Assembly (NCBI RefSeq): GCF_000027125.1 | Contig: NC_017626.1 | Strand: one strand, 5' to 3' | DNA length: 64,000 bases | DNA from: Escherichia coli 042 | GTDB lineage: Bacteria; Pseudomonadota; Gammaproteobacteria; Enterobacterales; Enterobacteriaceae | Shown here: one piece after another, positions 1,502 to 63,080 of the stretch | Position numbering within the stretch: position 1 is the stretch's first letter | Layout of the letters: every line of letters starts with the position of its first letter | The notes under the pieces: model-generated | Databases searched by the model: none | What the model was told of the DNA's origin: nothing | The model's input: only the letters and a program-made list of their open reading frames with translations | Translations under genes and position numbers: made by a program

Positions 1502-1520
1502 AAGCAAACTGTGCAATGAA

Positions 1521-1546: not shown

Positions 1547-1566
1547 GCATTTCTGACGACGATTTT

Positions 1567-4879: not shown

Positions 4880-4893
4880 GCCGGAGTGATATT

Positions 4894-5628
4894 GTGAAAG
4901 TCATCATTGTTGAAGACGAATTCCTGGCACAACAGGAACTGAGCTGGCTAATTAAAGAGCACAGCCAGATGGAGATTGTCGGCACCTTTGACGACGGTCT
5001 GGACGTGTTGAAGTTTTTGCAGCATAACCGCGTCGACGCCATTTTTCTGGATATCAATATTCCGTCGCTGGATGGTGTGTTGCTGGCGCAAAACATCAGC
5101 CAGTTCGCCCATAAACCATTTATTGTGTTTATCACCGCGTGGAAAGAACATGCGGTAGAAGCGTTTGAACTGGAGGCGTTTGACTACATTCTCAAACCGT
5201 ATCAGGAGTCACGCATTACCGGGATGCTGCAAAAACTGGAAGCGGCCTGGCAACAACAGCAGACCAGCAGCACGCCTGCCGCGACGGTAACGCGTGAGAA
5301 TGACACCATTAATCTGGTGAAAGATGAGCGAATAATCGTCACGCCAATTAACGATATCTATTACGCCGAAGCGCACGAGAAAATGACCTTTGTCTATACG
5401 CGGCGTGAATCCTACGTAATGCCGATGAACATTACCGAATTTTGCAGCAAACTGCCGCCGTCGCATTTTTTCCGCTGCCATCGCTCATTTTGTGTCAATC
5501 TGAACAAAATCCGCGAGATCGAACCGTGGTTTAATAACACCTACATTCTGCGGCTGAAAGATCTGGATTTTGAAGTGCCAGTCAGCCGCAGCAAAGTTAA
5601 AGAATTCCGCCAGTTAATGCATCTTTAA
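4894..5628 (+). CDS. ypdB: LytTR-family response regulator
   Basis: ORF track starts at TTG 4876; preferred start GTG 4894 (MKVIIVEDE...) with GGAG SD 7 nt upstream; receiver domain plus LytTR; sits just downstream of ypdA stop. Confidence 0.85.
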   Translation: MKVIIVEDEFLAQQELSWLIKEHSQMEIVGTFDDGLDVLKFLQHNRVDAIFLDINIPSLDGVLLAQNISQFAHKPFIVFITAWKEHAVEAFELEAFDYILKPYQESRITGMLQKLEAAWQQQQTSSTPAATVTRENDTINLVKDERIIVTPINDIYYAEAHEKMTFVYTRRESYVMPMNITEFCSKLPPSHFFRCHRSFCVNLNKIREIEPWFNNTYILRLKDLDFEVPVSRSKVKEFRQLMHL

Positions 5629-5640
5629 TCGGGAACTTTC

Positions 5641-6498
5641 ATGAAAGCACCAGGCTTGCCCGCCGATCAACAATTTTTCGCCGATCTGTTCAGCGGCCTG
5701 GTGCTTAACCCGCAACTACTGGGGCGCGTCTGGTTTGCCAGCCAGCCTGCCTCGTTACCGGTGGGCAGTTTATGTATTGATTTTCCCCGTCTGGATATCG
5801 TGCTGCGCGGCGAATACGGCAATCTGCTGGAAGCAAAGCAGCAACGTATGGTTGAAGGAGAAATGCTGTTTATTCCAGCGCGCGCGGCTAATTTACCGAT
5901 CAACAACAAACCGGTGATGCTGTTAAGCCTGGTGTTCGCACCGACCTGGCTTGGGTTATCGTTTTACGATAGCCGTACCACGTCGTTGTTGCATCCTGCT
6001 CGCCAGATCCAACTTCCCAGCCTGCAACGCGGCGAAGGTGAAGCAATGCTTACTGCCCTCACCCATCTTAGCCGTTCGCCGCTGGAGCAGAATATCATTC
6101 AGCCACTGGTGTTAAGTTTGCTGCATCTTTGCCGCAACGTGGTGAATATGCCGCCGGGCAATTCGCAGCCGCGCGGCGATTTTCTTTATCACAGCATTTG
6201 TAACTGGGTTCAGGATAATTATGCGCAGCCGCTCACCCGTGAGAGCGTGGCGCAGTTTTTTAATATCACGCCCAATCATCTGTCAAAACTGTTTGCGCAG
6301 CATGGAACAATGCGTTTTATCGAATATGTGCGTTGGGTGCGAATGGCGAAGGCGAGGATGATTTTGCAGAAATATCATCTGTCGATTCATGAAGTGGCGC
6401 AGCGTTGCGGCTTTCCGGACAGCGACTATTTTTGTCGCGTCTTCCGGCGTCAGTTTGGCCTGACGCCGGGAGAGTACAGCGCCCGTTTTCAGGGCTAA
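5641..6498 (+). CDS. ypdC: AraC-family transcriptional regulator
   Basis: 285-aa ORF; C-terminal AraC HTH; recognised as YpdC. Confidence 0.85.
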   Translation: MKAPGLPADQQFFADLFSGLVLNPQLLGRVWFASQPASLPVGSLCIDFPRLDIVLRGEYGNLLEAKQQRMVEGEMLFIPARAANLPINNKPVMLLSLVFAPTWLGLSFYDSRTTSLLHPARQIQLPSLQRGEGEAMLTALTHLSRSPLEQNIIQPLVLSLLHLCRNVVNMPPGNSQPRGDFLYHSICNWVQDNYAQPLTRESVAQFFNITPNHLSKLFAQHGTMRFIEYVRWVRMAKARMILQKYHLSIHEVAQRCGFPDSDYFCRVFRRQFGLTPGEYSARFQG

Positions 6499-6500
6499 CG

Positions 6501-12971: not shown

Positions 12972-13937
12972 TTACAGAATGTGACCTAAGGTCTGGCGTA
13001 AATGTGCACCGGAACCGAGAAGACCCGGATTGTCATGGACGATGAGATACACCGGAATATCATGGACATATTCTTTAAAGCGCCCTTTATCTTCAAATGC
13101 GGCACGGAAACCGGAGGCTTTGAAGAACTCAAGGAAGCGCGGCACGATACCACCCGCAATAAACACGCCGCCAAATGTCCCGAGATTGAGCGCCAGATTG
13201 CCGCCAAAACGGCCCATAATGACGCAAAACAGCGACAACGCGCGGCGGCAATCGGTGCAGCTGTCAGCCAGCGCACGTTCGGTAATATCTTTTGGCTTGA
13301 GATTTTCTGGCAGGCGGTTGTCGGCTTTCACAATCGCGCGATACAAATTCACCAGCCCAGGACCAGAAAGCACGCGCTCTGCCGAAACATGACCAATTTC
13401 TGCACGCAGTATTTCGAGGATAATGCCCTCTTCTTCACTATTCGGCGCAAAATCAACGTGACCGCCTTCGCCTGGCAAGCTTACCCAACGCTTATCTACA
13501 TGGACCAGATGCGCAACCCCAAGCCCCGTTCCGGCACCGTAAACCGCAATAGGCTTACCTTCGACCGGTTCTGCGCCACCAAACTGAATCAGATGCTCTT
13601 TTTTCAGCATCGGGATCGCCATCGATACAGCGGTAAAATCGTTAATAATTTCCAGATGGCTAAAACCGAGATTCTTTTTCATTTCGGCAATTGAGAACGC
13701 CCAGGTATGGTTGGTCATTGCCACCCAGTCACCGGTAATTGGGCAAGCGATGGCAATACAGCCGTCTTTCACCTCGACCTTATGTTCTTCAAGATAAACG
13801 CGAATGACCGCTTCGAGGCTGGGGTAATCAAGCCCTGAATAGGTCTTAGCCTGCGAGATTTCACCACTGGCAATATCACACAGAGCAAGACGTGCGTTGG
13901 TGCCGCCCACATCACCGACTAATGCATACTTTGTCAT
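12972..13937 (-). CDS. glk: glucokinase
   Basis: 321-aa ORF recognised as Glk. Confidence 0.92.
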
Positions 13938-14140
13938 TCTTCAACTGCTCCGCTAAAGTCAAAATAATTCTTTCTCACACTGTAAATACCTGGGGGCATA
14001 ACAACAACGCCGGAAAGGCAGGCTCCCTGTAAATATCGATCTGGGTCACACAATTACTTTATCGTTTCAGCACCAATTGCAGCGATGCCTTTTTGCAAGC
14101 TGGGCAAACTAAGTATCTGACCCCGCATAAGGAATAGAAT

Positions 14141-15397
14141 ATGCTCCATCCGCGAGCCAGAACCATGTTGTTATTATCGCTCCCCGCCGTGGCAATTGGG
14201 ATTGCGTCCAGTCTTATTCTGATTGTGGTGATGAAAATCGCCTCGGTATTACAGAATTTGCTCTGGCAACGACTGCCGGGAACTCTGGGGATAGCCCAGG
14301 ATTCACCTTTCTGGATCATCGCCATATTAACGCTAACAGGTATTGCGGTGGGGTTGGTTATCCGTTTCAGCCAGGGGCATGCCGGACCAGACCCCGCCTG
14401 TGAACCGCTGATCGGCGCACCAGTTCCGCCCTCTGCGCTACCAGGACTTATCGTAGCATTAATTCTCGGTCTTGCTGGCGGCGTCAGCCTGGGGCCGGAA
14501 CATCCGATCATGACCGTCAATATCGCCCTTGCGGTTGCCATTGGCGCTCGTCTGTTACCGCGCGTCAACCGAATGGAGTGGACTATTTTAGCCTCTGCCG
14601 GCACCATCGGCGCGCTGTTTGGCACACCTGTTGCGGCGGCGTTGATATTTTCGCAAACCTTAAATGGCAGTAGTGAAGTTCCGCTATGGGATCGTCTTTT
14701 TGCGCCATTAATGGCGGCAGCAGCTGGTGCACTTACTACCGGATTATTTTTCCATCCCCATTTTTCACTGCCCATTGCGCATTACGGACAGATGGAAATG
14801 ACCGATATTCTCAGCGGTGCAATTGTCGCGGCGATTGCCATCGCAGCAGGGATGGTCGCCGTATGGTGCTTACCACGGTTGCACGCGATGATGCATCAAA
14901 TGAAAAATCCGGTGCTCGTGCTGGGTATTGGCGGATTTATTCTCGGTATTCTGGGGGTTATGGGTGGACCAGTTTCGCTGTTTAAAGGGCTGGATGAGAT
15001 GCAGCAGATGGTGGCAAATCAGGCTTTCAGCACCAGCGATTACTTTTTGCTGGCGGTGATTAAACTTGCCGCCCTGGTCGTTGCTGCCGCCAGTGGCTTT
15101 CGCGGTGGACGAATCTTCCCGGCAGTGTTTGTCGGCGTGGCATTAGGGTTGATGCTGCATGAGCACGTTCCCCCCGTTCCAGCGGCAATAACCGTTTCCT
15201 GCGCTATTCTCGGCATCGTGCTGGTGGTAACACGCGATGGCTGGTTAAGTCTTTTTATGGCGGCAGTCGTTGTACCCAATACCACATTGCTACCGCTGCT
15301 CTGTATCGTCATGCTTCCGGCATGGCTGTTATTAGCAGGTAAGCCGATGATGATGGTCAATCGTCCGAAGCAACAGCCACCCCACGATAACGTTTAG
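14141..15397 (+). CDS. yfeO: putative ion-channel/transport membrane protein
   Basis: 418-aa polytopic ORF recognised as YfeO. Confidence 0.85.
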
Positions 15398-15511
15398 CAA
15401 AAAATGCTCTCCTTTATGATTTAAGAGTTATGGCGATGATACGGGGCTTTACCTCCCCGTAATATTGCGTTAACAGGCCGCTGACGGCTTCGATCGTGAA
15501 GGAGAATAACA

Positions 15512-15838
15512 ATGTTCAGGTCACTGTTTCTGGCGGCCGCCCTGATGGCATTTACCCCGCTTGCGGCAAACGCAGGTGAAATCACCCTACTGCCATCAAT
15601 CAAATTACAAATTGGCGATCGCGATCATTACGGTAATTACTGGGACGGTGGTCACTGGCGCGACCGTGACTACTGGCATCGCAATTATGAATGGCGTAAG
15701 AACCGCTGGTGGCGTCATGATAATGGCTACCATCGTGGCTGGGATAAGCGTAAAGCGTATGAGCGTGGCTATCGTGAAGGCTGGCGCGATCGTGACGATC
15801 ATCGCGGAAAAGGCCGCGGACATGGACATCGCCATTAA
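15512..15838 (+). CDS. ypeC: small secreted protein rich in His/Arg/Asp/Trp/Tyr (DUF2502-like)
   Basis: 108-aa ORF with signal peptide ([21 protein letters not shown]) followed by low-complexity RDxxYW / HRGW repeats. Confidence 0.8.
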
Positions 15839-15862
15839 ACGCGTCCGTCAATGGAGCACAAT

Positions 15863-15951
15863 GCCTGATGCGACGCTAGCGCGTCTTATCAGGCCTACAA
15901 ACCGTCTCTTTAACGCGTAGGGCGGATAAGGCGTTTTACGCCGCATCCGCC
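15863..15951. repeat. REP pair (BIME-like) between ypeC and mntH
   Basis: gcctgatgcgacgctagcgcgtcttatcaggcctac and gggcggataaggcgttttacgccgcatccgcc, canonical REP palindromes. Confidence 0.7.
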
Positions 15952-15979
15952 AATGGTGCCAGATGCGACACCAGCTGAA

Positions 15980-17227
<1,248 letters not shown>

Positions 17228-46987: not shown

Positions 46988-46991
46988 TAAT

Positions 46992-47081
46992 ATGAAACGG
47001 ACAATGCTCTGTCTTTCTCTGCTGGCTGTCAGCTGTAGCGTCAGCGCCGCAAAATACCCTGTTCTGACAGAAAGTAGTTGA
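46992..47081 (+). pseudogene. 29-codon remnant ORF, possibly the 5-prime end of yfeW (PBP4B)
   Basis: ATG 4 nt after murP stop encodes MKRTMLCLSLLAVSCSVSAAKYPVLTESS then stop (signal-peptide-like); K-12 has the ~430-aa yfeW here (from memory). Confidence 0.4.
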
Positions 47082-47109
47082 TCAAGTGTATGCGGCGTTA
47101 AAGCAGTAA

Positions 47110-47146
47110 TAAAAAGGCCAGTCAGTTGTGATACTGGCTGGCCTTT
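47110..47146 (-). terminator. rho-independent terminator of yfeX
   Basis: minus strand: hairpin aaaggccagccag/ctgactggccttt with one G-U pair, followed by a U-tract. Confidence 0.6.
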
Positions 47147-47166
47147 AATCATCGAATCAGAAACGA

Positions 47167-49247: not shown

Positions 49248-49659
49248 CTTCAATCAAACGCTTACCCAGACTTAGCACGTCGGCGTGTTCATATCCCAGG
49301 CGTTCATACATTCCGAGCACCATGTCGTTATCTTCCGGCACGTTGATCTGAATTTTCGGGCAGCCGCGAGCAATCAGCTTTTTCTCCAGCCGATTAAGCA
49401 ACGCATTAGCAATCCCACGCCCACGAAACTCTGGATGCACGCCAAGATAATAAGCAGACCCGCGATGCCCGTCATAACCGCCCATCACCGTTCCGACCAC
49501 TTCACCGTTTACCTCAGCGACCAGAAACAAACTGACGTCATGGTTCATCTTACGCTCGATGTCCATTTCCGGATCGTTCCACGGACGCAGCAAGTCGCAA
49601 CGCTCCCAAAGGGTGATGACCTCTTCGAAATCTTCCTGGCGAAATACGCGTATCTCCAT
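49234..49659 (-). CDS. ypeA: GNAT-family N-acetyltransferase
   Basis: ORF 49234..49770 trimmed to ATG 49659 ([14 protein letters not shown]...) giving 141 aa. Confidence 0.85.
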
Positions 49660-49872
49660 GGTATTCGTTACCTTTTTGCGGGTTAAAAGGCTGATTATGG
49701 CGTGAACGGTCGAATTAGCCAATATCTGACGAAAATCGGTTGAAAAAGTGGCATAATGAGGAGTTGTCAACTATTGAAATGAAAAGTAAAACAATTCTCA
49801 ACAGCAAACGGTCGTAACGGATTACGCGATACGATATAACATCTGGAACTTTATTATTACAACTCAGGCCGT

Positions 49873-50742
49873 ATGAGCACTTTTAAACCACTAAAAACAC
49901 TCACTTCGCGCCGCCAGGTGCTGAAAGCCGGTTTGGCTGCCCTGACGTTGTCAGGAATGTCGCAAGCCATCGCCAAAGACGAACCTTTAAAAACCAGCAA
50001 CGGACACAGCAAGCCGAAAGCTAAAAAATCTGGCGGCAAACGTGTCGTTGTTCTCGATCCAGGCCACGGCGGGATTGATACCGGAGCGATCGGGCGCAAC
50101 GGTTCGAAAGAAAAACATGTGGTGCTGGCGATTGCTAAAAACGTCCGTTCCATTTTGCGTAATCATGGGATTGATGCGCGTTTAACGCGTTCTGGCGATA
50201 CGTTTATCCCACTTTACGATCGCGTTGAAATCGCCCATAAACATGGCGCAGATCTGTTTATGTCAATTCATGCCGATGGCTTTACCAACCCGAAAGCTGC
50301 CGGTGCTTCGGTATTTGCCCTCTCTAACCGTGGGGCAAGTAGCGCAATGGCGAAATACCTGTCTGAACGCGAAAACCGCGCCGATGAAGTTGCCGGTAAA
50401 AAGGCGACTGACAAGGATCACCTATTGCAGCAAGTGCTGTTTGATCTGGTGCAAACCGATACTATTAAAAACAGCCTGACGCTCGGCTCGCATATTCTGA
50501 AAAAGATTAAGCCGGTGCATAAACTGCACAGCCGCAACACCGAACAAGCCGCGTTTGTGGTGTTGAAATCGCCGTCGGTTCCTTCGGTGCTGGTGGAAAC
50601 CTCGTTTATCACCAACCCGGAAGAAGAGCGGCTGTTAGGCACGGCAGCATTTCGCCAGAAAATCGCCACAGCGATTGCCGAAGGCGTGATCAGTTATTTT
50701 CACTGGTTTGACAACCAGAAAGCACACTCGAGAAAGCGGTAA
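49873..50742 (+). CDS. amiA: N-acetylmuramoyl-L-alanine amidase A (Tat-exported)
   Basis: 289-aa ORF with twin-arginine signal (TSRRQVLKAGLAALTLSG). Confidence 0.92.
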   Translation: MSTFKPLKTLTSRRQVLKAGLAALTLSGMSQAIAKDEPLKTSNGHSKPKAKKSGGKRVVVLDPGHGGIDTGAIGRNGSKEKHVVLAIAKNVRSILRNHGIDARLTRSGDTFIPLYDRVEIAHKHGADLFMSIHADGFTNPKAAGASVFALSNRGASSAMAKYLSERENRADEVAGKKATDKDHLLQQVLFDLVQTDTIKNSLTLGSHILKKIKPVHKLHSRNTEQAAFVVLKSPSVPSVLVETSFITNPEEERLLGTAAFRQKIATAIAEGVISYFHWFDNQKAHSRKR

Positions 50743-51645
<903 letters not shown>

Positions 51646-51650
51646 CTCCC

Positions 51651-52703
51651 TCACCCCCATTCCCGCATCCGCTGATGCAGCGTCAACGACGGCTTCTCGG
51701 CAAACAGCTGCTGGTAATCCGTGGCAAATTGCCCCAGATGCCAGAATCCCCACTGCATGGCGGCGTCTTTTACCGTTGTGCTTTGCGACCAAGGGCTTAT
51801 CAGTTCGCGGCGTACGGCGTTCAGGCGAATGCGTTTCAGCCACGCATTTGGGCCAATGCCTAAAATAGCGTGAAACGCGTTTTGTAGCGTGCGGCGGCTG
51901 ACATGCAGTTGATTACACAAGTCCAGCACCGTCACCGGTTCGGACATGTTTTCCAGCACATATTCACGGGCGCGGGAAAGCAACCGACGGTAACTCTGAT
52001 GACTGATGCTTTCCGCCGTCACCATTGGCTGCGCTTCTTCCAGCATCGCCCCCATCGCCATGAGCAAATTATCCCCCAGCACTTTACGCACAGCAGGCTG
52101 ATGAAGATTTTCCGGGTTCTCGCAAAATGTCGCCAGCGCCTGTTGGACAAAGCCCCACAGCGCGGCTTTATGCTGTTCTTTCACTTCCAGCGCCGACTGG
52201 CTACGCAGCATATGTAATACCCGATCCGGATTATGCAAAAAGTTAGCCTGACGGGTGATGACATCTTCAGAAAGCACTACGCCCAGGATCGTGTAATCGT
52301 CCGGCGTACTTAATTCAAACTCGGTTCCACCGGGGCGCGTCGCTATTTCTGCGCTTCCCAGACATTGCGAACCGATAAATCCCTGCTCACCGCGCGTCGC
52401 CGGAATGCCAAACCAGAACGAGTTCGGCCAGACCAGGCACGACTGACGCAGCGCCAGACCGGTGTATTCACGAAAAACCTGAATATCATCGAGTAGAATT
52501 TCCGTAAATTCACCATGAAACTTGCCCGGATGCAGCTGATCGTAAATCTGCTGCCAGGCGGTAATCGTTAAAGCATGTTCATAGACATCCGTTGTCTGTC
52601 GTTGATGAACATTATCCACTTCGACCTTCGGCGTGAGCTTCAGGTTTTCGGGTAAGGGTTCATGATAAAGATGGTGCAAATTGGCTGTACGGGTCTTTTT
52701 CAT
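51651..52703 (-). CDS. eutR: AraC-family activator of the eut operon
   Basis: 350-aa ORF recognised as EutR. Confidence 0.92.
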
Positions 52704-52748
52704 GATGTTAATGCCGGGTGTTGTAGGACACCCGGCACCTCCGACAGG

Positions 52749-53249
52749 TTAATGGGGCTTGAGACGATAACGACTACTGCGTTTACGTAACGTCCCGGCA
52801 GAAAAGAGCTGTTCGAGCGCATTTCTGGCTTTTTCGAGCGGCCAGCCAAAGTGGGCTGCCACTTCTCCTGCCGTCATTCCCTGACGTACTGATGTTAACA
52901 GCGCCAACAACTCGTCAGCAGATTCCGCGACGATAACTGGCGCGTCGGGTTCCTTTACGGGTTGCTTCGGCTGGCGGTTAAAGCCAGTAACCAGCCACTG
53001 GATGTCATCGTCTGGCCGACCGATCTCCTTGCGGCTGATGACACGCCCGGTACGCATCGCGGCAGCACAACCTGCGTCCAGCGCCGCACGACACGCCGCC
53101 AGATCGCCTTCCACCACCAGCGTTAGGCGACCAGGGTCAAGCACTTCGTGACTGAGCAGACGAACGTTAGCTGCTTTGAGCATGGCATCAGCTGCATCTA
53201 TCGCGGCGACCATGCCGTCCACTTCCAGCAATCCCAGTGCATTGATCAT
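52749..53249 (-). CDS. eutK: microcompartment shell protein EutK
   Basis: ORF 52749..53255 (TTG) trimmed to ATG 53249 (MINALGLLEV...); BMC domain plus C-terminal extension. Confidence 0.88.
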   Translation of the reverse strand: MINALGLLEVDGMVAAIDAADAMLKAANVRLLSHEVLDPGRLTLVVEGDLAACRAALDAGCAAAMRTGRVISRKEIGRPDDDIQWLVTGFNRQPKQPVKEPDAPVIVAESADELLALLTSVRQGMTAGEVAAHFGWPLEKARNALEQLFSAGTLRKRSSRYRLKPH

Positions 53250-53261
53250 CGGCAACCTCCG

Positions 53262-53921
53262 TTACGCACGCTGGATAGGATTACGCGCGATTTCCAGCAC
53301 TGCATCGGTAAAGGCGTTACAGGCTGCTTTACACGCTGCCTGGCTACCGGTTAAAAATGCTGCCGAGTAGTTGGTTTCAGACGGTGGCGGGACATAGGTC
53401 ACCAGCTGTACGTCGGCAGATTTCAGGGCTGCATCAATGCCATAGGTCGCTTCCAGCGGCGGTGCCACCAGATACGCCATCGGATCGCCAAGCGTGATCC
53501 CGGCGGTTGATGAGAGATAAGAACCGGTACGCGAAACTACATGTGCCAGGAAGGCTGTATTTTCTGCGTCATTAGCCCACTGGAAAGCAGCGCCATTTTC
53601 AATATGCGCAACCATCGCATCCAGACCAGCACGCACTTCCGCCGGGTTTGGCCCACCGAGCATAATCAGCACTTCACCGGCAGTCGGTGACGGTCCGTGT
53701 GCAGCGCCCGCATACAGCGAGCGGCCATACACCACTTCGACCATCGCCTGCTTGGTCGCTTCGTCAGCCGCAATGTAGGTGACGTCATCGGAATCAGCAG
53801 AAATCAGCCCGAGGCTACGAATATGCGGCGGCAATTTCAGTTCACGCGCAAATTCGGCGTTAACGGAGGCAATCACCCGCATGGCGGTGACCGACGGTCG
53901 AATCAAATCTAAAGCTGGCAT
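53262..53921 (-). CDS. eutL: microcompartment shell protein EutL (tandem BMC)
   Basis: 219-aa ORF recognised as EutL. Confidence 0.92.
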
Positions 53922-53930
53922 GATGCCTCC

Positions 53931-54818
53931 TTATCGGGTCATGTTGATGCCGGATGCTTTCTGCTCCAGCATACGTTTCGCCAAATCCACAATGACGGCT
54001 GCGGCTTCAACCGGCGGCGTGCCGCCCTGGTGAATGTTAGAAATACAGGTGCGATCGGCCTCAACGGTGGTCGCCATACGCGGCGAGTAAACGGCGTAGC
54101 AGGAGAGGCTTTCTGACTGCCCTAATCCCGGGCGTTCCCCCACCAGCAGGATCACTACTTTCGCGCCGAGGATCTCACCGATCTGATCTTCAATCTTCAC
54201 GCGACCATAACGAACAAAGAATGGCGTACCGACTTTCAGCCCGGCCTGTTTCAGGCCCGCCATCAGCGGCGGCAGGATCTCTTCGTAGTTCACGGTGATC
54301 GCATCAGTTGACAGGCCATCAGAAATAACGACCTGCACGTCCGGATTAGCAACACACTGTGCTTTCAGCGCTTCAACAGCTTCTGCACACAGGCGGCGGC
54401 CCATATCCGGACGAGTCAGGTAGAGATTTTTGTCGCTAATTTCAGAGCGGACTTCCAGCAAGCCCTGCGCTTTCACCCACTCTTCTGGCACTTCTTTCAG
54501 TACGGTATCTTTCGAACGAGAGTGATCGGCCAGGAAACGCAGCAACGCCTGGGTACGCGGACGCGGACCGGCACGACCGGTACAAACGCGGGCCACGGTG
54601 CTGCGACGCAGTTCTGTTAATACGTCTGCGCGATGCGGGTTTTCAACGCCAATCCACGCTTTTGCTTCCGCAGAGCCTAAATCCAGCGCGCAGCTTTCCG
54701 AGGTCACCGGTGCCGCACAGGTGGTGGTGGCGCACTTTGCTTCTGACGGCGCGGGGGCCGCTTGTCCCATTGACGCCATCACGCTGCGTACAATTTCTTC
54801 AATCTGTTTTTGATCCAT
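53931..54818 (-). CDS. eutC: ethanolamine ammonia-lyase small subunit
   Basis: 295-aa ORF recognised as EutC. Confidence 0.95.
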
Positions 54819-54838
54819 GATGTGTTATCTCCGCGTCA

Positions 54839-56200
54839 TCAGAAGAACAGTGACGGATCGCCCGCCCGTTTGGTCAGGCGACCGTTTGCCATAATGCCCA
54901 TGCTTTCCAGCCAGCGTTCAAACTCCGGTGACGGGCGCAGGTTGAGTAACTGACGCACAGTGGCGGTATCGTGGAAGGCGGTGGTCTGGTAGTTGAGCAT
55001 GATGTCATCACCCAGCGGCATCCCCATGATGTAGTTACAGCCTGCGGTGGCGAGCAGGATCATCAGGTTTTCGTTGAGGTTCTGGTCAGCGTCAGCGTGG
55101 TTGGTGTAGCAGCAGTCACAGCCCATAGAGATGCCGCTCAGCTTACCCATAAAGTGATCTTCTAAGCCCGCACGGATAATCTGGCGGTCGTTGTAGAGAT
55201 ACTCCGGCCCAATAAAGCCGACCACGGTGTTGACGATAAACGGATCGTAATGACGCGCCAGCCCATAGTTACGCGCTTCCATCGTCACCTGGTCAGCGCC
55301 GAAGTTCGCGCCAGCGGACAGCGCAGAACCCTGCCCGGTTTCGAAGTAGAGGCAGTTTTCCCCGGCGATACGGTTGAACTCCGCGCCCACTGCGCGTGCT
55401 TCATCGAGCATCGCCAGCTCCACGCCAAATTCTTTCAGCCCTTTTTCGCTGCCGCAGATACTCTGGAAAATCAGCCCGCCTGGTGCGCCACGACGGATCG
55501 CTTCAATCTGGGTGGTGACGTGCGCCAGCACGCAGCCCTGGGTCGGAATGTTGAATTTGTCGATCACGCCGCAAATGGTGTCCAACACGCGGCTTAAGTT
55601 TTCCACGTCGTCAGTCACCGGGTTAACGCCGATCACCGCATCGCCCACCCCGAAGGAAAGCCCTTCGTAGATTTGCGCGGCGATACTTTGCACGTCGTCA
55701 CGGGTGTCGTTTGGCTGCAAGCGGGCGCTGAAGGTGCCCGGAATACCGATGGTGGTATTGGCCTTTTTGATCACCGGCATTTTCTTCGCGCCGTAGATCA
55801 GGTCCGCGTTGGAGCAAATCTTCGCTACCGCCGCGACCACTTCCGAGGTCAGCCCTTTGCGGGTAAAGGCAATGTCGTCCACGCTGGTTTCATCGCTCAG
55901 CACATACTCACGCAGTTCGCTGATGCTCCAGTTTTTAATCTGGTTGTAGGCCGTTTCGTTAACGTCGTCCTGAATCAGCCGCGTCACGCAGTCATCTTCA
56001 TAGGCAATCACCGGATTATTGCGGATGTCCGCTACGGTCATTTCCGACAACACCTGCTTTGCCGCCACGCGCTCTTGTGAGCTTGCCGCTGCAACGCCCG
56101 CCAGCACATCCCCCGAACGCAGTTCGTTGGCTTTAGCCAGCACCTCTTTTACATCCTTAAACTGATATACATTGCCGAACAATGTGGTCTTTAGTTTCAT
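54839..56200 (-). CDS. eutB: ethanolamine ammonia-lyase large subunit
   Basis: 453-aa ORF recognised as EutB. Confidence 0.95.
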   Translation of the reverse strand: MKLKTTLFGNVYQFKDVKEVLAKANELRSGDVLAGVAAASSQERVAAKQVLSEMTVADIRNNPVIAYEDDCVTRLIQDDVNETAYNQIKNWSISELREYVLSDETSVDDIAFTRKGLTSEVVAAVAKICSNADLIYGAKKMPVIKKANTTIGIPGTFSARLQPNDTRDDVQSIAAQIYEGLSFGVGDAVIGVNPVTDDVENLSRVLDTICGVIDKFNIPTQGCVLAHVTTQIEAIRRGAPGGLIFQSICGSEKGLKEFGVELAMLDEARAVGAEFNRIAGENCLYFETGQGSALSAGANFGADQVTMEARNYGLARHYDPFIVNTVVGFIGPEYLYNDRQIIRAGLEDHFMGKLSGISMGCDCCYTNHADADQNLNENLMILLATAGCNYIMGMPLGDDIMLNYQTTAFHDTATVRQLLNLRPSPEFERWLESMGIMANGRLTKRAGDPSLFF

Positions 56201-56211
56201 AAGTCGTTCCC

Positions 56212-57615
56212 TCAGGAAGGAAATGCGAGTGATTTCACCGTCACCGGCACAACCGATCCGCCAAAAAGAGGCGTACCAATGTCGATATAGTCCCCCGCGC
56301 GGACAATCACTTCGTCAATGACTGCCAACGGGAGTTGCTGTAGCTGTGGGCGCAACAACATGCCCAGAGCTTTACCAAAGTCCTGCCCGGCCACCACCAG
56401 CAGGGGATGCGGATTCGGAAAACGCGCGACGAAATCGACCAGCGCGTTGATGACCGTCAGTACCGCGGCGTAACGCACAGGCAGCGAGGCGGGAAGCGCC
56501 AGCACGTACGCGTCAGTTTTGGGGCAAAGATCCAGCTGAATCAGCGCCTGTTGCCAGGCACTCACCAGATCCGTTTCATCAATTGGGATCGCCACCGGCA
56601 AATTGCGCAGCGGCAGTTGTACGCCCTCCAGCCAGATTGTGCTGCCAGAGAGCGAAAGGGTATGTGCACCCGCGCCAATCACCGTGGCACGTACGGTTTG
56701 CGCTGGAAACTGCACGTTCATCTCACGCAGGCGCGGATGGTCATGCAGCGCCGTTGCCAGAAGCGGGCCGATATCGGCAAAACAGAACGGATCGGCGGGC
56801 TGGTGGCGATAACATTCGCCCACGCCGCCAGAAAGCGTAATGATTTCGGGCGTAACACCTGCGGGCAGCAAACCGGTTTGCATCAATGCCTGCGCGAGCG
56901 GCGAGAGCGTTCCGTCGATCACTTCGACAATCAGCTCTGCCATCCGGCGGGTAACCTGCACCAGCTGCGCGCCGGTCAGCGAACGGGCGTCAGTGCCAGC
57001 ACCGAAGCACTCATCCACAATCATCTGCCCCGGTTTATGAGCGTAAACCACGCGCCCCTGGCTGTCGGTTTCCAGCAGGCGACCGCCGACGTTGAGGCAG
57101 GCGGTGCCGCTGATTTTTCCGGCATCGAACAGGGCGTAGTTCGCGGTGCCACCGCCGATATCGATATTCAGTACCCGACACAACCGTTGTTCAGAAAGGG
57201 TTTGCGCCCCGGCACCGTGACCGGCGATCACGGATTCGAGATGCGGCCCGGCGCTGGCGACGACAAAATCGCCCAGCGATTGGGAGAGCGTCATCACCGC
57301 CGGGCGAGCATTGCGGGTTTTCGCGCTTTCACCGGTGATGATGATGGCACCAGAATCAACGCTTTCCGGCGCAATGCCCGCAGCCTGGTATTGCTCGAGG
57401 ATTAAGGTTTTCAGTTCCGCTTCTTTTAAACCACCCTGTTTATCGACAGGGGTAAAGAACACCGGGCTTTGCCAGCTAATTTCGCGTTTGATGAATTCGT
57501 AGCGCGGCACCTGCGACACCGCCGCACGGTTAACCAGCTCCAGGTGGGAGAAGATCACCTGGGTGGTGGTGGTGCCGATATCGATACCGACGCTCAGTAG
57601 CTGGCGAGTGTTCAC
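56212..57615 (-). CDS. eutA: ethanolamine ammonia-lyase reactivating factor
   Basis: 467-aa ORF recognised as EutA; ends 11 nt upstream of eutB start. Confidence 0.95.
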   Translation of the reverse strand: MNTRQLLSVGIDIGTTTTQVIFSHLELVNRAAVSQVPRYEFIKREISWQSPVFFTPVDKQGGLKEAELKTLILEQYQAAGIAPESVDSGAIIITGESAKTRNARPAVMTLSQSLGDFVVASAGPHLESVIAGHGAGAQTLSEQRLCRVLNIDIGGGTANYALFDAGKISGTACLNVGGRLLETDSQGRVVYAHKPGQMIVDECFGAGTDARSLTGAQLVQVTRRMAELIVEVIDGTLSPLAQALMQTGLLPAGVTPEIITLSGGVGECYRHQPADPFCFADIGPLLATALHDHPRLREMNVQFPAQTVRATVIGAGAHTLSLSGSTIWLEGVQLPLRNLPVAIPIDETDLVSAWQQALIQLDLCPKTDAYVLALPASLPVRYAAVLTVINALVDFVARFPNPHPLLVVAGQDFGKALGMLLRPQLQQLPLAVIDEVIVRAGDYIDIGTPLFGGSVVPVTVKSLAFPS

Positions 57616-58838
57616 GATTGTGCCTCCGCTTCGGTTTTAGCCGCGGTCGCGTCTTCTTTTGGCACCAGCATCATCGCCACGCCAATCGCCGTTACGCCGC
57701 CGATCAATTTGCCGACAATCATCGGGAAAATCATGGCGTTCATGTTGGCAGCGGCGAAGCCTAAGTGGTCGCCCAGGGCGAAAGCAGCGGAAACGGCGAA
57801 GGCGCAGTTGATGACTTTGCCGCGGGTATCCATCTGCTTCATCATGCCGAACATCGGGATGTTGTTAGCAAGCGTTGCCACCATGCCAGCTGCCGCGATG
57901 TTGTTCATATTCAGCACTTTACCGACGCTCATCAGCGGTTTTTCAAACCAGCGGGTCAGCAGCAGCACCATCGGGTACGCCCCTAACAGAACGCAGGAGA
58001 TAGAACCGATAACTTCAATGGCGCGCATCACTTCACCGGGTTTGTCGCCAGGGGCCATAAAGATAGGATCCAGACCGGGGATCAGTTCCCAGCCAAGGAG
58101 GAATTTCACTACCGCGGCAGCAAGACCGAGGGTGATCAATGCAACGAGGAATTTGGCGAAGATCTGGAAGCCGTTGATCATTTTTTCCGGGATGAATTTC
58201 AGCCCCAGCGCCACCAGCACCGCAACGATAAGTACCGGGATCATGTTCATCAGGATCAGCGCAAAGGTGAATTCCACCGGCTGACCGTTGATCTGCACAC
58301 CGGAGTACATAGCAACCAGACCACCAGCAATACAGCCAATCGGAATGGTCACAATGCCCGCCAGCACGCCGAGCGCCAGATAACGACGGTCAGAAGGTTC
58401 GATAATGCCGAGCGCCACCGGAATGGAAAACACAATCGTTGGCCCCATCATCGACCCGAGAATTAACCCAGAGTATAGCCACGCTGCTACGTCGCCGCCC
58501 GCCAGCTCTTTGGCGAGGAAGAACCCGCCCATATCGCACGCCAGCAGTGTTCCGGCGAACATCGATGGGTTTGCGCCGAGCATTTCGTAAACCGGGATAA
58601 TCACCGGTCCGAGTACGTGGGCCAGAACAGGTGCCAGCGCGGTCATACCAACCATCGCCAGGCCCAGTGCGCCCATCGCCATAAAGCCTTCTTCAAACTG
58701 CCCGCCGGATCCTTCGATACTTTTACCGAACTTACCGAGGAAACGAGCAGAACCGCCGAACTGCGACAGGATCCTGTCTACGGCAGCTATCAGCATAAAG
58801 AACATCATGATGTACATGATGATTTCGTTAATTCCCAT
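57612..58838 (-). CDS. eutH: ethanolamine permease
   Basis: 408-aa polytopic ORF; 4-nt overlap with eutA start. Confidence 0.95.
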   Translation of the reverse strand: MGINEIIMYIMMFFMLIAAVDRILSQFGGSARFLGKFGKSIEGSGGQFEEGFMAMGALGLAMVGMTALAPVLAHVLGPVIIPVYEMLGANPSMFAGTLLACDMGGFFLAKELAGGDVAAWLYSGLILGSMMGPTIVFSIPVALGIIEPSDRRYLALGVLAGIVTIPIGCIAGGLVAMYSGVQINGQPVEFTFALILMNMIPVLIVAVLVALGLKFIPEKMINGFQIFAKFLVALITLGLAAAVVKFLLGWELIPGLDPIFMAPGDKPGEVMRAIEVIGSISCVLLGAYPMVLLLTRWFEKPLMSVGKVLNMNNIAAAGMVATLANNIPMFGMMKQMDTRGKVINCAFAVSAAFALGDHLGFAAANMNAMIFPMIVGKLIGGVTAIGVAMMLVPKEDATAAKTEAEAQS

Positions 58839-58868
58839 CGCCTTTACTCCCTGTTAGTTGTTATTTAT

Positions 58869-59351
<483 letters not shown>

Positions 59352-59353
59352 AT

Positions 59354-60541
59354 TTATTGTGCCGCTGCGTACAGGCCGACAATCTGCTCCAGGCTGGCGG
59401 TACGCGGGTTGCTGCGCAGACAAATATCTTCCAGCGCGGCCTGCGCCCATGCGCCGTAATGTCCGGTGGTTGCGCCCACGTCTGCCAGCCGCTTGTTGAT
59501 CCCGACTTCCGCAATCAGCTCACTTACCGCGTTAATAGCGTCACGATCGTCGGATTTTTTAGTTCGCAGCGCCCGACCAATCTGACTAAAGCGTTCACGA
59601 CAAACCATCCGGTTAAATTCCATCACCGTTGGCAGCAACATGGCGTTCGCCAGACCGTGCGGAATATGCAGCGCCGCCCCCGTTTGATGCGCCATCGCGT
59701 GGCATATCCCAAGCCCCGCACTGGAAAACGCCATTCCCGCCATGCATGAAGCCAGCAACATACTCTCGCGCGCGGCAAGGTCGTGACCGTAGCCCACCGC
59801 TTTCGGCAGTGATTTACCAATCATCGCGATTGCGCCAATCGCCAGGCTGTCGGTAAACGGTGTAGCGTTCAGCGCGCTGTACGCTTCAATGGCATGGGTT
59901 AACGCATCAATGCCAGTCATCGCCGTGACATGCGACGGCACGCCTTCGGTCAGCGCGGCGTCGAGGATCGCCACATCCGGCATCAACGAGGCATGTGCTA
60001 ACACCTGCTTGCGCCCGCTCACCGCGTCGATAATCACCGTTACGTTGGTGGTTTCAGAACCGGTTCCGGCAGTAGTTGGAATGGCAATCAGCGGCAGGCG
60101 CGGTTGCAGAACGCTGGTTTCTGACATTTCTGCCAGCGTGCTATCCGGGTTCGTCACCAGTAGTGCCACCGCTTTCGCCGCATCCAGCACCGAGCCGCCG
60201 CCAAACGCAATCACCCCATCGCACCCCGATTCACGCAACTGCGCCACGGCTGCACACACGTCGGTGATGCACGGTTCGCCCACCGGACATGACCAGAGCG
60301 TCATGGCGATACCTTTAACGGCCAGGCTACGCGTCAGCCCGGCGGTCATCCCTGCCTGATGCAAAAAGCTGTCTGCCATCACGAACAGATGTTTCAGCCC
60401 ACGCGTTTGCGCTTGCTGTCCGCAACTGCTCACCGCGCCCGGACCGCAAAGCGTCACCGGTGGAACGCTAAATGTTTTTACCCGTTGCAGATTCAGGGTA
60501 TCGAACGCCTGAAAGAGCGCGGTCTGCAATTCATTTTGCAT
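59354..60541 (-). CDS. eutG: iron-containing alcohol dehydrogenase of the eut pathway
   Basis: 395-aa ORF recognised as EutG. Confidence 0.93.
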   Translation of the reverse strand: MQNELQTALFQAFDTLNLQRVKTFSVPPVTLCGPGAVSSCGQQAQTRGLKHLFVMADSFLHQAGMTAGLTRSLAVKGIAMTLWSCPVGEPCITDVCAAVAQLRESGCDGVIAFGGGSVLDAAKAVALLVTNPDSTLAEMSETSVLQPRLPLIAIPTTAGTGSETTNVTVIIDAVSGRKQVLAHASLMPDVAILDAALTEGVPSHVTAMTGIDALTHAIEAYSALNATPFTDSLAIGAIAMIGKSLPKAVGYGHDLAARESMLLASCMAGMAFSSAGLGICHAMAHQTGAALHIPHGLANAMLLPTVMEFNRMVCRERFSQIGRALRTKKSDDRDAINAVSELIAEVGINKRLADVGATTGHYGAWAQAALEDICLRSNPRTASLEQIVGLYAAAQ

Positions 60542-61367
60542 AGATCCCCTCCGCTTTCTCTCGCCCGCTACTGGCGATCGCCAGCGGGGTCATAAACAAA
60601 CTGTGCTGCGGTAGATGCACCTGTAACGCCGGGAATTGTTTGCAAAACAGTTCCGCTACGCCCGGTTGCATACAGGAGCCGCCCGCCAGCCATAAATCAG
60701 TAATGCCCTGCCCTTCAATATGCCGGGCGACAATGTCCGCCATTTTTTCGTACACCGGTTTCACCGCAGGCCAAATCTCTTCACCGTGACCGCGCTTGTA
60801 CTGCTCCGCCTCTTCCAGCGAAATACGGCGATTTCCGGCGAGAGTCAGAGAGATGTGATGTCCGCCAGTGGCTTCATCCGCCGAGTACGTCACCTTGCCC
60901 TTTTTCACGATGGCAATGCCGGTGGTGCCGCCGCCGATATCCACTACGCCTGCGTTGTCCAGTTGCAGCAGATCCGCGACTGCGGTTGGCTCATCCAGCA
61001 CATGGCTCACTTCCAGTCCAGCAGACTCCAGCACGTTGATGGAAATACGCGGGTCCGTACCTGGAGGAAATGAGGTCGCCGCATGGCTAAAACGGCGACC
61101 GAATTGCTGCTCAAGAGTGTCGAGATGGCGACGAACAATGGTGACCGCACCGAAGAAATCCCAGACGATGCCGTCGCGGACCACATCGGCCCAGTCGAGA
61201 CATACCGCCACCGGCTGACCGTCGCAGTCGACAACCATCGACACCACATCGCAGGTGCCCAGATCCACCCCCAGCCACAGCGGAGATTCCGTTGCGGCAG
61301 GTGTCTGGTTACACAGCGTTGCCGCCGTTTGCAGACGCGGGGTGAGCCATTGTTCGTCGTGCGCCAT
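60531..61367 (-). CDS. eutJ: EutJ chaperone-like protein (actin/Hsp70 fold)
   Basis: 278-aa ORF; overlaps eutG start by 11 nt. Confidence 0.93.
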   Translation of the reverse strand: MAHDEQWLTPRLQTAATLCNQTPAATESPLWLGVDLGTCDVVSMVVDCDGQPVAVCLDWADVVRDGIVWDFFGAVTIVRRHLDTLEQQFGRRFSHAATSFPPGTDPRISINVLESAGLEVSHVLDEPTAVADLLQLDNAGVVDIGGGTTGIAIVKKGKVTYSADEATGGHHISLTLAGNRRISLEEAEQYKRGHGEEIWPAVKPVYEKMADIVARHIEGQGITDLWLAGGSCMQPGVAELFCKQFPALQVHLPQHSLFMTPLAIASSGREKAEGIYAK

Positions 61368-61377
61368 CGGTTACTCC

Positions 61378-62781
61378 TTAAACAATGCGAAACGCATCAA
61401 CTAATACACAGCGACGCAGACGGACAAACGTACGCGCGCTGGTTACCCCTTCACCGGTTGGCGTGGTGATGGTCATGGTGGTCCAGCCTTCCCCGCCCAG
61501 CCCCAGCCCGGCAATGCACGGTCCGTTCTTAACGAAAATGCTGGTATCAATGGCGTTCGCCATCTGGTTCATGTTCTCGATGTTGCGCGAGTGCATTGCC
61601 GCCGTGTGATGGCAACCGCCTTCCAGTTTCACCGCCAGCGCAATGGCATCCGCCACGTTGGCGACGCGCACGACGGGCAGCACCGGCATCATCAGTTCGG
61701 TCACGGCAAACGGATGTTCTGCAGTGGTTTCCACAAACAGCAAACGCGTTTCTTGCGGCACGTTCAGGCCGATTGCCGCCGCGATTTTCGCCGCATCGCG
61801 ACCTACCCAGTCACGGCTGACGGTGCCTTTTCCGCGCTCGTCGATATTTTTCAGCAACACCGGTTGCAGCTGCTGCGCCTGTTCTGCGGTCAGTTTCACC
61901 GCGTGCTGGCCTTCCATCAGACGCATCAGTTCATCGGCTACGCTATCAACAACAATCAGTACCTTTTCGTCGGCACAAATGATGTTGTTATCGAAAGAAG
62001 CGCCTTTGACGATGGACTGAGCGGCACGGGCGAGGTCGGCGGTTTCATCCACCACTACCGGCGGGTTGCCAGCGCCTGCGGCAATCAGACGTTTATTGGT
62101 GTGTTTACGCGCCGCTTCTACTACCGCTTCGCCGCCCGTCACCACCAAAAGGCCGATGCCCGGAAACTTGAATAAGCGTTGCGCGGTTTCGATATCCGGA
62201 TTTGCCACAGTAACCAGTAAGTTTTCCGGCCCGCCTGCGGCAACAATCGCCTGGTTGAGCAGCGTGATCGCCCGCTGGGAGACTTTTTTCGCCGCCGGAT
62301 GCGGGGCAAAAATGACGCTGTTGCCCGCGGCAATCAGGCTGATGGCGTTGTTAATTACGGTTGCCGCCGGGTTAGTGGAAGGCGTCACCGAAGCCACCAC
62401 GCCCCAGGGCGCGTTTTCAATTAAAGTCAGGCCGTTGTCGCCGGTCAGCACCTGTGGTGAGAGGCACTCAACGCCTGGTGTGCCGCACGCCTGAGCGACG
62501 TTTTTGGCAAATTTATCTTCGACGCGGCCCATGCCGGTTTCACTGACGGCAAGTTCCGCTAAATCTCTGGCGTGTTTTTCGCCTGCCTCACGAATGGCAG
62601 CAATGGCTAACTGGCGCATTGCCACGCTTTTTAACCCTTGCTGGGCAATTTTGGCTGCCGCAACGGCGTCATCCAGGGACGCGAAAACGCCCATCTCATG
62701 AACGGCGGCGGGCGGCGTATCACTGCTTTGCATTTTCAGCAGTACCGCTTTCACCACCTGTTCAATATCCTGTTGATTCAT
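61378..62781 (-). CDS. eutE: CoA-acylating acetaldehyde dehydrogenase
   Basis: 467-aa ORF recognised as EutE. Confidence 0.95.
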   Translation of the reverse strand: MNQQDIEQVVKAVLLKMQSSDTPPAAVHEMGVFASLDDAVAAAKIAQQGLKSVAMRQLAIAAIREAGEKHARDLAELAVSETGMGRVEDKFAKNVAQACGTPGVECLSPQVLTGDNGLTLIENAPWGVVASVTPSTNPAATVINNAISLIAAGNSVIFAPHPAAKKVSQRAITLLNQAIVAAGGPENLLVTVANPDIETAQRLFKFPGIGLLVVTGGEAVVEAARKHTNKRLIAAGAGNPPVVVDETADLARAAQSIVKGASFDNNIICADEKVLIVVDSVADELMRLMEGQHAVKLTAEQAQQLQPVLLKNIDERGKGTVSRDWVGRDAAKIAAAIGLNVPQETRLLFVETTAEHPFAVTELMMPVLPVVRVANVADAIALAVKLEGGCHHTAAMHSRNIENMNQMANAIDTSIFVKNGPCIAGLGLGGEGWTTMTITTPTGEGVTSARTFVRLRRCVLVDAFRIV

Positions 62782-62792
62782 GATGTTCTGCC

Positions 62793-63080
62793 TTATTTGT
62801 GGAAAATTACCTGACCGCCAGACACCACCTCATCGACGATGCCAATCACGCACAGATCGACCGGTGACGTTTCGCTTTTATGCGCCTGGCGGGCGGAACT
62901 GCCACTCACCAGCAACACCCACTCCCCGGTTCCCGCGCCAATATTGTCGATTGCGACGGCGCATTGCCCGTCAGGATTACCTTGTGGATCAATCATTTCC
63001 ACCATCAGCAATTTGTCATGCGCCAGTCCGTGATGGCGTACGGTACAAACAATTTGTCCAGTGACGACTGCCAGTTTCAT
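62793..63080 (-). CDS. eutN: microcompartment vertex protein (EutN/CcmL family)
   Basis: 95-aa ORF MKLAVVTGQIVCTVRH... Confidence 0.93.
   Translation of the reverse strand: MKLAVVTGQIVCTVRHHGLAHDKLLMVEMIDPQGNPDGQCAVAIDNIGAGTGEWVLLVSGSSARQAHKSETSPVDLCVIGIVDEVVSGGQVIFHK

Follow-up and report, generated by a model that had tools for sequence, protein, structure and literature searches.

The junction between eutA and eutB raises a question about the ethanolamine (eut) operon: is it intact and native in the window (the whole 64,000-nucleotide stretch of DNA analysed here), at a site where a prophage interrupts it in Escherichia coli K-12 MG1655? The MG1655 record places 'cryptic prophage CPZ-55' between the two genes, as the original prediction had stated. 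CPZ-55 is annotated there at 2558691-2565480 (6,790 bp; b2442-b2450, intZ-yffS), with the eutB start at 2558679 and the eutA stop at 2565481. The corresponding part of the window carries the following features.

54839 to 56200, minus strand: eutB, ethanolamine ammonia-lyase large subunit (open reading frame, 453 amino acids)
56201 to 56211, minus strand: 11-nt eutA-eutB spacer (from the sequence; identical in 35 loci of other species)
56212 to 57615, minus strand: eutA, lyase reactivating factor (open reading frame, 467 amino acids)
56207 to 56223, minus strand: imperfect inverted repeat UUUCCUU-CCU-GAGGGAA (centroid structure, -4.6 kcal/mol)

Reading the plus strand across the junction (...tttagtttCATaagtcgttcccTCAggaaggaaatgcgag...), we found CAT at 56198-56200, the reverse complement of the eutB ATG, and TCA at 56212-56214, the reverse complement of the eutA TGA stop. 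The two minus-strand signals are 11 nt apart with no insert between them, as had been predicted. Both proteins were full length by NCBIfam models, EutB with NF011649 (664 bits; cutoff 554) and EutA with NF007991 (1074 bits; cutoff 799), and were identical to their MG1655 counterparts at 452 of 453 and 460 of 467 residues, respectively. The eutB ribosome-binding site (UGAGGGAACGACUUAUG) consists of the spacer plus the eutA TGA stop codon. Because the eutA stop thus overlaps the eutB ribosome-binding site (UGAGGGA, 6 nt, AUG), eutB and the later genes eutC, eutL, eutK and eutR would be read from the same long transcript, which probably starts upstream of eutS, and ribosomes terminating on eutA probably start eutB translation (translational coupling). 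An EutA-EutB fusion produced by frameshifting was considered and rejected: upstream of its ATG, the eutB frame stays open but offers no start codon, and no slippery heptamer was seen. As RNA, the inverted repeat is predicted to form a weak 7-bp hairpin that covers the Shine-Dalgarno sequence of eutB; the stop codon of eutA then runs from the loop into the beginning of the 3' arm. At the DNA level, the repeat is the dyad around the integrase crossover discussed below. An equivalent hairpin was predicted in Hafnia and Entomohabitans, and the folding energy of the hairpin was no better than that of shuffled sequence (z = 0.28, 60 nt). The hairpin may have a functional role.

The two ends of CPZ-55 in MG1655 carry an 8-bp repeat, TCAGGAAG (locus coordinates 6692-6699 and 13482-13489). 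Two further features of the window overlap the junction.

56212 to 56219, no strand assigned: core TCAGGAAG, single copy, read as the unoccupied attachment-site core for CPZ-55 and other IntZ-type elements
56178 to 56292, minus strand: near-invariant nucleotide block (~80 nt at the 3' end of eutA, then the spacer, then the opening ~22 nt of eutB)

An attachment core had been sought at 56200-56212; it was found, at a position offset to 56212-56219, where it opens with three bases complementary to the eutA stop codon. The 8-mer is nonspecific by itself, with four occurrences in the window over both strands, about the chance expectation, and the core is therefore identified from the alignment of its flanks. 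Megablast aligned MG1655 locus positions 1-6710 to window positions 49521-56234 and 13482-16323 to 56212-59052. The two alignments abut at the core, and on each side the window is co-linear with the host DNA at the corresponding prophage junction (left or right) of MG1655. Searches of the whole window returned neither CPZ-55 DNA (blastn) nor an IntZ-like protein (tblastn), which also disposes of the idea that CPZ-55 had moved elsewhere within it. With a single core copy and no element, the window junction is, on its sequence, an unoccupied attachment site (attB) of CPZ-55 and IntZ-type elements.

IntZ contains Arm-DNA-bind_3, Phage_int_M and Phage_integrase domains and matches a PHROG integrase family. 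We infer that IntZ is the enzyme that recombines this site and lies behind the insertion, given its integrase domains, the repeated independent occupancy at the same nucleotide (see below) and the clean empty site of K-12 strain W3110. In MG1655 and its relatives, the 6.8-kb CPZ-55, encoding this tyrosine integrase with an arm-binding domain, occupies precisely this site, with its crossover inside the 8-bp core that takes in the eutA stop codon. The insertion keeps eutA and eutB intact and separates them by 6.8 kb of oppositely oriented foreign DNA; according to papers, this abolishes ethanolamine use. Prophages that attach at the 3' ends of protein-coding genes, such as e14 at icd, offer a parallel, as there too a tyrosine integrase targets a conserved gene at its end without damaging the coding sequence (PMC6379469 and general knowledge). 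In contrast to e14, identity at the CPZ-55 site amounts to only 8 bp plus weak flank similarity, not a long duplicated gene end, and the harm lies in splitting an operon, not in altering a gene.

CPZ-55 is not alone in using the site. CPZ-55 proper was present in 213 complete E. coli genomes, mostly laboratory K-12 derivatives among the matches listed, and roughly 200 further genomes matched little beyond its integrase end, at 80-90% nucleotide identity. In both of the latter that we inspected, the site was occupied by a different element whose crossover fell at the identical point. EC-107 has an unrelated 11.6-kb element with gadC-like, murI-like and IS genes as cargo; two core copies flank it, and its crossover is identical to that of CPZ-55. 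The left junction of 14EC033 has the same crossover point, and there an IS1 adjoins a deletion spanning eutA to eutS. A urinary isolate, UPEC U71, has also been reported with a different prophage at this site (PMC6652756). The IntZ-type elements of these three strains share the crossover core, the orientation and an integrase beside eutB, whereas their cargo differs; the window has none of them.

The CPZ-55 attachment site lies inside a block of ~115 nt that is nearly invariant across genera, synonymous positions included. Across 19 species, the 115 columns of 56178-56292 contained five singleton substitutions. Third codon positions were invariant in 24 of 33 cases within the block and in 58 of 433 in the rest of eutA (Fisher p = 4e-13), and the longest invariant run, 79 nt, was the highest within the 5.4 kb from eutH to eutL. 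Literature searches found no described element at the eutA-eutB junction.

Quite possibly, although we stop a little short of expecting it, the block is a sum of ordinary constraints: the ribosome-binding site and start region of eutB, together with conservation of the protein termini and codon preference. Consistent with this, the eutB-eutC junction also has an invariant run, albeit a shorter one (28 nt), and distant genera keep only ~30 nt, comprising the UUUCCUUCC tract, the stop codon and the Shine-Dalgarno sequence. Nor did the block give any sign of structured RNA, a known RNA family or a promoter-like site: folding z-scores were 0.13 (171 nt) and 0.28 (60 nt), not beyond shuffled sequence, and the sole Rfam match was at chance level (E = 6.6; 13 bits against a gathering score of 75). 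Ordinary constraints sit less easily with the freezing of synonymous positions to ~90 nt upstream of the stop codon, well past a ribosome footprint, or with a metagenomic lineage in which EutA is only 79% identical and the block is 100% identical over ~107 nt.

There is a more speculative reading, which we consider rather doubtful: the block may be an undescribed cis-acting element of enterobacterial eut operons beyond the ribosome-binding site, and its near-invariance would then be why IntZ-type integrases land there. Conjecturally, the signal could act at the mRNA or the DNA level, for example in EutB translation, mRNA processing or internal transcription. The conservation is measured; a function beyond translational coupling is conjecture. 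By adopting the centre of the block, IntZ-type integrases would gain a landing site workable in many hosts.

Several specific candidates for the block were rejected. We found no sigma-70 promoter or terminator on the relevant strand; two terminator-like matches lay on the antisense strand inside eutB, in a number close to chance. An intragenic sigma-54 site was dismissed as well, since TGGCGGATCGGTTGT lacks the -12 GC of TGGCAC-N5-TTGCW; a relaxed sigma-54 pattern gave 8 matches in the window against 8.1 expected, and the supplements of published E. coli and Salmonella sigma-54 maps do not mention eutA or eutB. Homogenization by a mobile element with its own copy of the block found no backing in phage and plasmid collections, which yielded only chromosomal eut fragments, and the CPZ-55 and EC-107 junctions share with the host site only 8 bp plus weak similarity. 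An antisense small open reading frame at 56172-56321 (49 codons, with an internal ATG at 56224 after AGGAAGGA) is a weak candidate and was set aside. Its 49-codon length is kept in most core species, but its last nine codons vary freely and it is broken in more distant lineages; in one lineage, changes synonymous in eutA convert antisense Pro to Leu (twice), Ile to Thr and Cys to Tyr.

Of 5,426 complete E. coli genomes, 4,964 (91.5%) have an intact eutA-eutB junction, and it was uninterrupted in all of the approximately 45 other Enterobacterales loci examined. These comprised 35 loci from other species of Citrobacter, Klebsiella, Salmonella arizonae, Yokenella, Pluralibacter and Escherichia, and further outgroups in S. 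enterica, Hafnia, Photorhabdus, Buttiauxella and Entomohabitans. With the majority of E. coli and every outgroup empty, the empty state is best read as ancestral, which supports the earlier description of this junction as ancestral and intact. W3110, E. coli Nissle 1917 and Salmonella enterica (17-gene EUT1 locus) have the same uninterrupted junction and 11-nt spacer as the window, and Salmonella matches it exactly between roughly -92 and +31, counted from the eutB ATG. These three use ethanolamine (PMC7617246, PMC11334477).

We are nearly certain that the window comes from a non-K-12 E. coli with a native eutA-eutB junction that was never interrupted (or was precisely restored). On its sequence, it is genotypically eut+ at this junction. 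Precise excision from a formerly occupied site, which would make the junction secondarily empty, seems very improbable to us. Such a history has precedents of a kind, in that IntZ-type elements fill the site in several hundred genomes and the W3110 junction is clean while its sister strain MG1655 has CPZ-55, so that occupied and cleanly empty states coexist in one recent lineage. Parsimony nevertheless argues against it, given the genome and outgroup counts above, and the sequence carries no evidence of past occupancy, although a scar is expected in neither case.

The original prediction had also taken the missing prophage to mean that the window is not K-12-like at this site. That holds against MG1655 but fails as a general claim: the W3110 reference genome also has an empty site, with no difference from the window across ±60 nt or more, and prophage absence therefore cannot show that a strain is not K-12. 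It is the flanking eut DNA, 3-4% diverged, that sets the window apart from K-12. MG1655 and BW25113 have the same eut genes, order, flanks and 8-bp core at the eutA stop as the window; relative to MG1655, the window has one core copy, no 6,790-bp element and this diverged DNA. That the window is itself a K-12 strain of the W3110 type, its empty site being uninformative on lineage, has next to no probability and is already refuted, because although W3110 is K-12 and shares the empty junction, the window is only 96.3-96.9% identical to MG1655 at the nucleotide level across ~13 kb of eut DNA, differs at seven EutA residues, has a eutG-eutH gap of 515 nt instead of 216 nt, lacks the pbp4b that K-12 has between murP and yfeX, and has the clinical isolate Ecol_316 as its best match.

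The remainder of the operon is in keeping with a native arrangement, with these genes around the junction.

51651 to 52703, minus strand: eutR (open reading frame; NCBIfam EutR; co-linear Ecol_316 annotation)
52749 to 53255, minus strand: eutK (open reading frame; Ecol_316 annotation)
53262 to 53921, minus strand: eutL (open reading frame; Ecol_316 annotation)
53931 to 54818, minus strand: eutC (open reading frame; NCBIfam EutC; Ecol_316 annotation)
57612 to 58838, minus strand: eutH (open reading frame; NCBIfam EutH)
58869 to 59352, no strand assigned: tandem array, 4.8 copies of a 100-nt unit (Tandem Repeats Finder: period 100, 97% matches, score 912)
59354 to 60541, minus strand: eutG (open reading frame; NCBIfam EutG)
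60531 to 61367, minus strand: eutJ (open reading frame; Ecol_316 annotation)
61378 to 62781, minus strand: eutE (open reading frame; Ecol_316 annotation)
62793 to 63080, minus strand: eutN (open reading frame; Ecol_316 annotation)
stop at 63187, minus strand: eutM (open reading frame; Ecol_316 annotation)
63519 to the window end at 64000, minus strand: 3' part of eutD, running off the window (translation without a stop to the edge)

The genes follow the canonical order, eutD' M N E J G H A B C L K R, on the minus strand with no foreign genes between them, and eutR, eutK, eutL and eutC lie downstream of the junction. Relative to the EUT1 reference locus (eutSPQTDMNEJGHABCLKR), the window covers eutR to the 3' part of eutD; eutT, eutQ, eutP and eutS fall outside it; Ecol_316, the complete genome that matches the junction best, has all four. 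The junctions from eutR to eutD had been described as coupled or overlapping throughout. Most are, with gaps of -11 to +20 nt, but three are not: eutG-eutH (515 nt), eutM-eutN (106 nt) and eutK-eutR (45 nt). An apparent truncation of eutD near 63941 (140 amino acids in the open reading frame list) is an artefact of the window end, as its frame has no stop before the edge. The tandem array fills the eutG-eutH gap, and its 100-nt unit resembles REP/BIME palindromic repeats. The MG1655 gap holds two such units, and that of Ecol_316, which is not identical to the window, measures 315 nt.

Much of what concerns occupancy is already published: the site, its 8-bp repeat and a prevalence of ~8% (PMC6379469), and the fact that interrupted strains lose ethanolamine use. 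With the insertion, BW25113 fails to form microcompartments or to induce eutB (PMC7617246); once the insertion is removed scarlessly, growth on ethanolamine as a nitrogen source returns (PMC11334477). Strains with an intact operon grow on ethanolamine with vitamin B12 and form microcompartments (PMC7617246, PMC11334477).

For the window strain itself the result matters little: it has the normal eut arrangement, like about nine-tenths of E. coli, and is not of the MG1655 type at this locus. More broadly, the state of the junction bears on predicting ethanolamine use, a fitness trait in the gut and urinary tract, and cautions against treating MG1655 or BW25113 as typical, since the insertion makes both eut-negative. 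If the block proves to be regulatory, it would add an extra control point to a well-studied operon and would provide a protein-gene counterpart to the ultra-conserved targets that integrases choose in tRNA genes.

The original prediction held that eutA and eutB are uninterrupted here, and this was borne out. Both genes are encoded by ORFs whose NCBIfam scores exceed the curated cutoffs:

54839-56200, minus strand: eutB, 453-codon ORF with its ATG at 56200-56198, full-length match to NCBIfam EutB (664 bits)
56212-57615, minus strand: eutA, 467-codon ORF with its TGA at 56214-56212, full-length match to NCBIfam EutA (1074 bits)

The eutA stop and the eutB start are 11 nt apart (plus-strand sequence of 56160-56230: aactgatatacattgccgaacaatgtggtctttagtttCATaagtcgttcccTCAggaaggaaatgcgag), and the ORFs around them match NCBIfam EutC, EutH, EutG and EutR. 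The anatomy suggests that eutB may be translated by ribosomes ending at the overlapping eutA stop. The position given for CPZ-55 in K-12 MG1655 was also right: the NC_000913.3 annotation places the 'cryptic prophage CPZ-55' (2558691-2565480; 6,790 bp) between the eutB start and the eutA stop, with intZ and yffL to yffS oriented opposite to eut. Its two junctions read ...gttccc TCAGGAAG aatcgatgatt... and ...accgcat TCAGGAAG gaaatgcgag..., so that the prophage is bracketed by an 8-bp direct repeat. Aligning the window junction to K-12 and searching for this core revealed a single copy at the junction, 56212-56219, whose first three bases are complementary to the eutA stop codon; when the MG1655 locus is aligned to the window by megablast, the two host flanks meet at this core. 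Because the 8-mer occurs four times in the whole window, roughly the number expected by chance, the identity of the site rests on the flank alignment and not on the 8-mer. Searches of the whole window found no match to CPZ-55 DNA or to an IntZ-like protein.

The insertion has been reported to adjoin the eutA stop, to be flanked by the 8-bp repeat, described there as a 'transposon-like' target duplication, and to occur in about 8% of 638 genomes (PMC6379469). Because IntZ, the CPZ-55 integrase, has arm-type DNA-binding, phage integrase central and tyrosine-recombinase catalytic domains and matches a PHROG integrase family, and because YffO of CPZ-55 resembles a small terminase subunit, the repeat is more plausibly the common core of a site for site-specific recombination. 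In BW25113, a carrier of the insertion, there was no growth on ethanolamine, no microcompartments formed and eutB was not induced, whereas Nissle 1917 grew, formed microcompartments and induced eutB (PMC7617246). Once the insertion had been removed scarlessly, BW25113 again grew with ethanolamine as a nitrogen source (PMC11334477).

To establish how common each state is in E. coli, we searched complete genomes with a 181-nt probe spanning the junction, which aligned as a single uninterrupted match in 4,964 of 5,426, including O157:H7 Sakai and B strains; a 1-kb probe gave an equal count. CPZ-55 proper (at least 80% coverage) was found in 213 genomes, nearly all at 99% identity or more, and the carriers among the matches listed were mostly laboratory K-12 derivatives. 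In about 200 further genomes the match, at 80-90% identity, extended little beyond the end of CPZ-55 that holds the integrase; two of this class were inspected. E. coli EC-107 (locus L004, 16002-27624) has an 11.6-kb element between eutB and eutA with an IntZ-like integrase and different cargo (gadC-like, murI-like and decarboxylase-fragment genes plus IS copies). In E. coli 14EC033 (locus L003, 16001-25051), an element with an IntZ-like integrase at the eutA/eutB site is followed by IS1 and then maeB, and the stretch of genes running from eutA to eutS has been lost. Both elements share their crossover nucleotide with CPZ-55, which makes the site a recurrent landing place for this element family. 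A urinary isolate has been described with a different prophage at the eutA/eutB site (PMC6652756).

The empty site had been taken to mean that the window is not K-12-like at this locus. The window is indeed non-K-12, but by the divergence of its flanks; the empty site is no proof, since the K-12 W3110 reference (L050, NC_007779.1, 12126-12138) also lacks CPZ-55, with the same 11-nt spacing and a junction identical to that of the window. K-12 is itself polymorphic at this site, W3110 being empty and MG1655 occupied, a pattern that fits precise excision in the K-12 lineage. The window differs from MG1655 in its flanking DNA (96.3-96.9% identical), in seven EutA substitutions, in a longer eutG-eutH gap and in lacking pbp4b, which K-12 has. 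The window nevertheless belongs to E. coli: the best-matching strain, Ecol_316, is 100% identical to the window over 1 kb (most other complete genomes, 95-99%) and likewise lacks pbp4b, with a short remnant annotated. The intervals concerned are:

46988-47166: murP-yfeX interval, 179 nt, missing the pbp4b (yfeW) found here in K-12
58839-59353: eutG-eutH gap, 515 nt
58869-59352: tandem array in that gap, 4.8 copies of a 100-nt palindromic REP/BIME-like unit with 97% matches between copies

The eutG-eutH gap is 216 nt in MG1655, with two units of the repeat, and 315 nt in Ecol_316, so the copy number varies among strains. This gap and that between eutM and eutN (106 nt) depart from the coupling or overlap originally described for the operon junctions. 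The operon can be called intact only from eutR up to the 3′ part of eutD, a gene that the window end cuts; eutT, eutQ, eutP and eutS lie outside.

We examined outgroups in two ways. A degenerate EutB N-terminus pattern, applied to one genome per species, gave 35 loci (Citrobacter, Klebsiella, Salmonella arizonae, Yokenella, Pluralibacter, Intestinirhabdus, Pseudocitrobacter and other Escherichia), and eutA lay directly upstream of eutB in all 35. Loci retrieved through EutA proteins, which avoids selection bias from the EutB pattern, were also uninterrupted (S. enterica, Hafnia, Photorhabdus, Buttiauxella, Entomohabitans and four metagenomic lineages). With every outgroup locus uninterrupted, parsimony makes the empty site ancestral. 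Two metagenome gene calls (P0091 and P0092, 792 aa) join EutA and EutB as one product; the eutB frame is open upstream through the eutA end, so that a single-base indel yields such a fusion ORF, and these are probably sequencing errors.

The same comparisons revealed a near-invariant block around the junction, and an antisense ORF coincides with it:

56178-56292, minus strand: near-invariant block in the cross-species alignment, -92 to +22 relative to the eutB ATG
56172-56321, plus strand: antisense small ORF, 49 codons from a TTG or 32 from an ATG at 56224

All 35 species loci share the 70 nt before the eutB ATG with few or no differences, and the block is near-invariant even at synonymous sites in Escherichia, Salmonella, Citrobacter, Klebsiella, Yokenella, Pluralibacter and others. 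Across 19 species, columns -92 to +22 contain only five singleton changes, whereas divergence from the window in the remaining eutA-eutB DNA amounts to 3-16%. Over the final 99 nt of eutA, 24 of 33 codons have an invariant third position; elsewhere in the gene 58 of 433 do (Fisher test, p = 4e-13). In a 10-species alignment of 5.4 kb from eutH to eutL, the block holds the three most conserved 60-nt windows and the longest invariant run (79 nt; the next, 28 nt, is at the eutB-eutC junction). Among E. coli genomes, 94% are at least 99% identical at the 181-nt junction probe, compared with 2% and 75% for equal-length control probes inside eutA and eutB. In the EutA-retrieved sample, S. enterica matches the window at every position of the block, ~107 nt are unchanged in a lineage whose EutA is only 79% identical, and two other lineages and distant genera keep ~30 nt (UCACU-GC-UUUCCUUCC, the stop codon and GGGA). 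Citrobacter koseri NCTC10786 (L025) has a one-base insertion ~55 nt upstream of the eutB ATG (GGATCGGGTTG versus GGATCGGTTG) that would frameshift the last ~20 eutA codons; this may reflect an assembly error or a pseudogene.

Our reading assigns the inner ~30 nt of the block, as distinct from its outer ~85 nt, to the start of eutB translation and to coupling. The IntZ attachment core sits mid-block, and the constancy of the block plausibly explains why this integrase family targets its centre. An imperfect dyad, TTTCCTT-CCT-GAGGGAA, encloses the core and as RNA forms a weak hairpin that covers the eutB Shine-Dalgarno and whose stability does not exceed that of shuffled sequence. The antisense ORF, whose ATG is preceded by AGGAAGGA and whose second codon positions are eutA third positions, keeps its length in most core species; it is probably not coding, because its C-terminus is not conserved and radical substitutions occur in one lineage. 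Searches of the block for an RNA-structure signal, an Rfam family, a promoter or sigma-54 support, and for copies on phages and plasmids, found none. The block is noted as a side observation. The junction is a known polymorphism in its common state, ordinary and already described; at the same spot lies a modest conservation signal.
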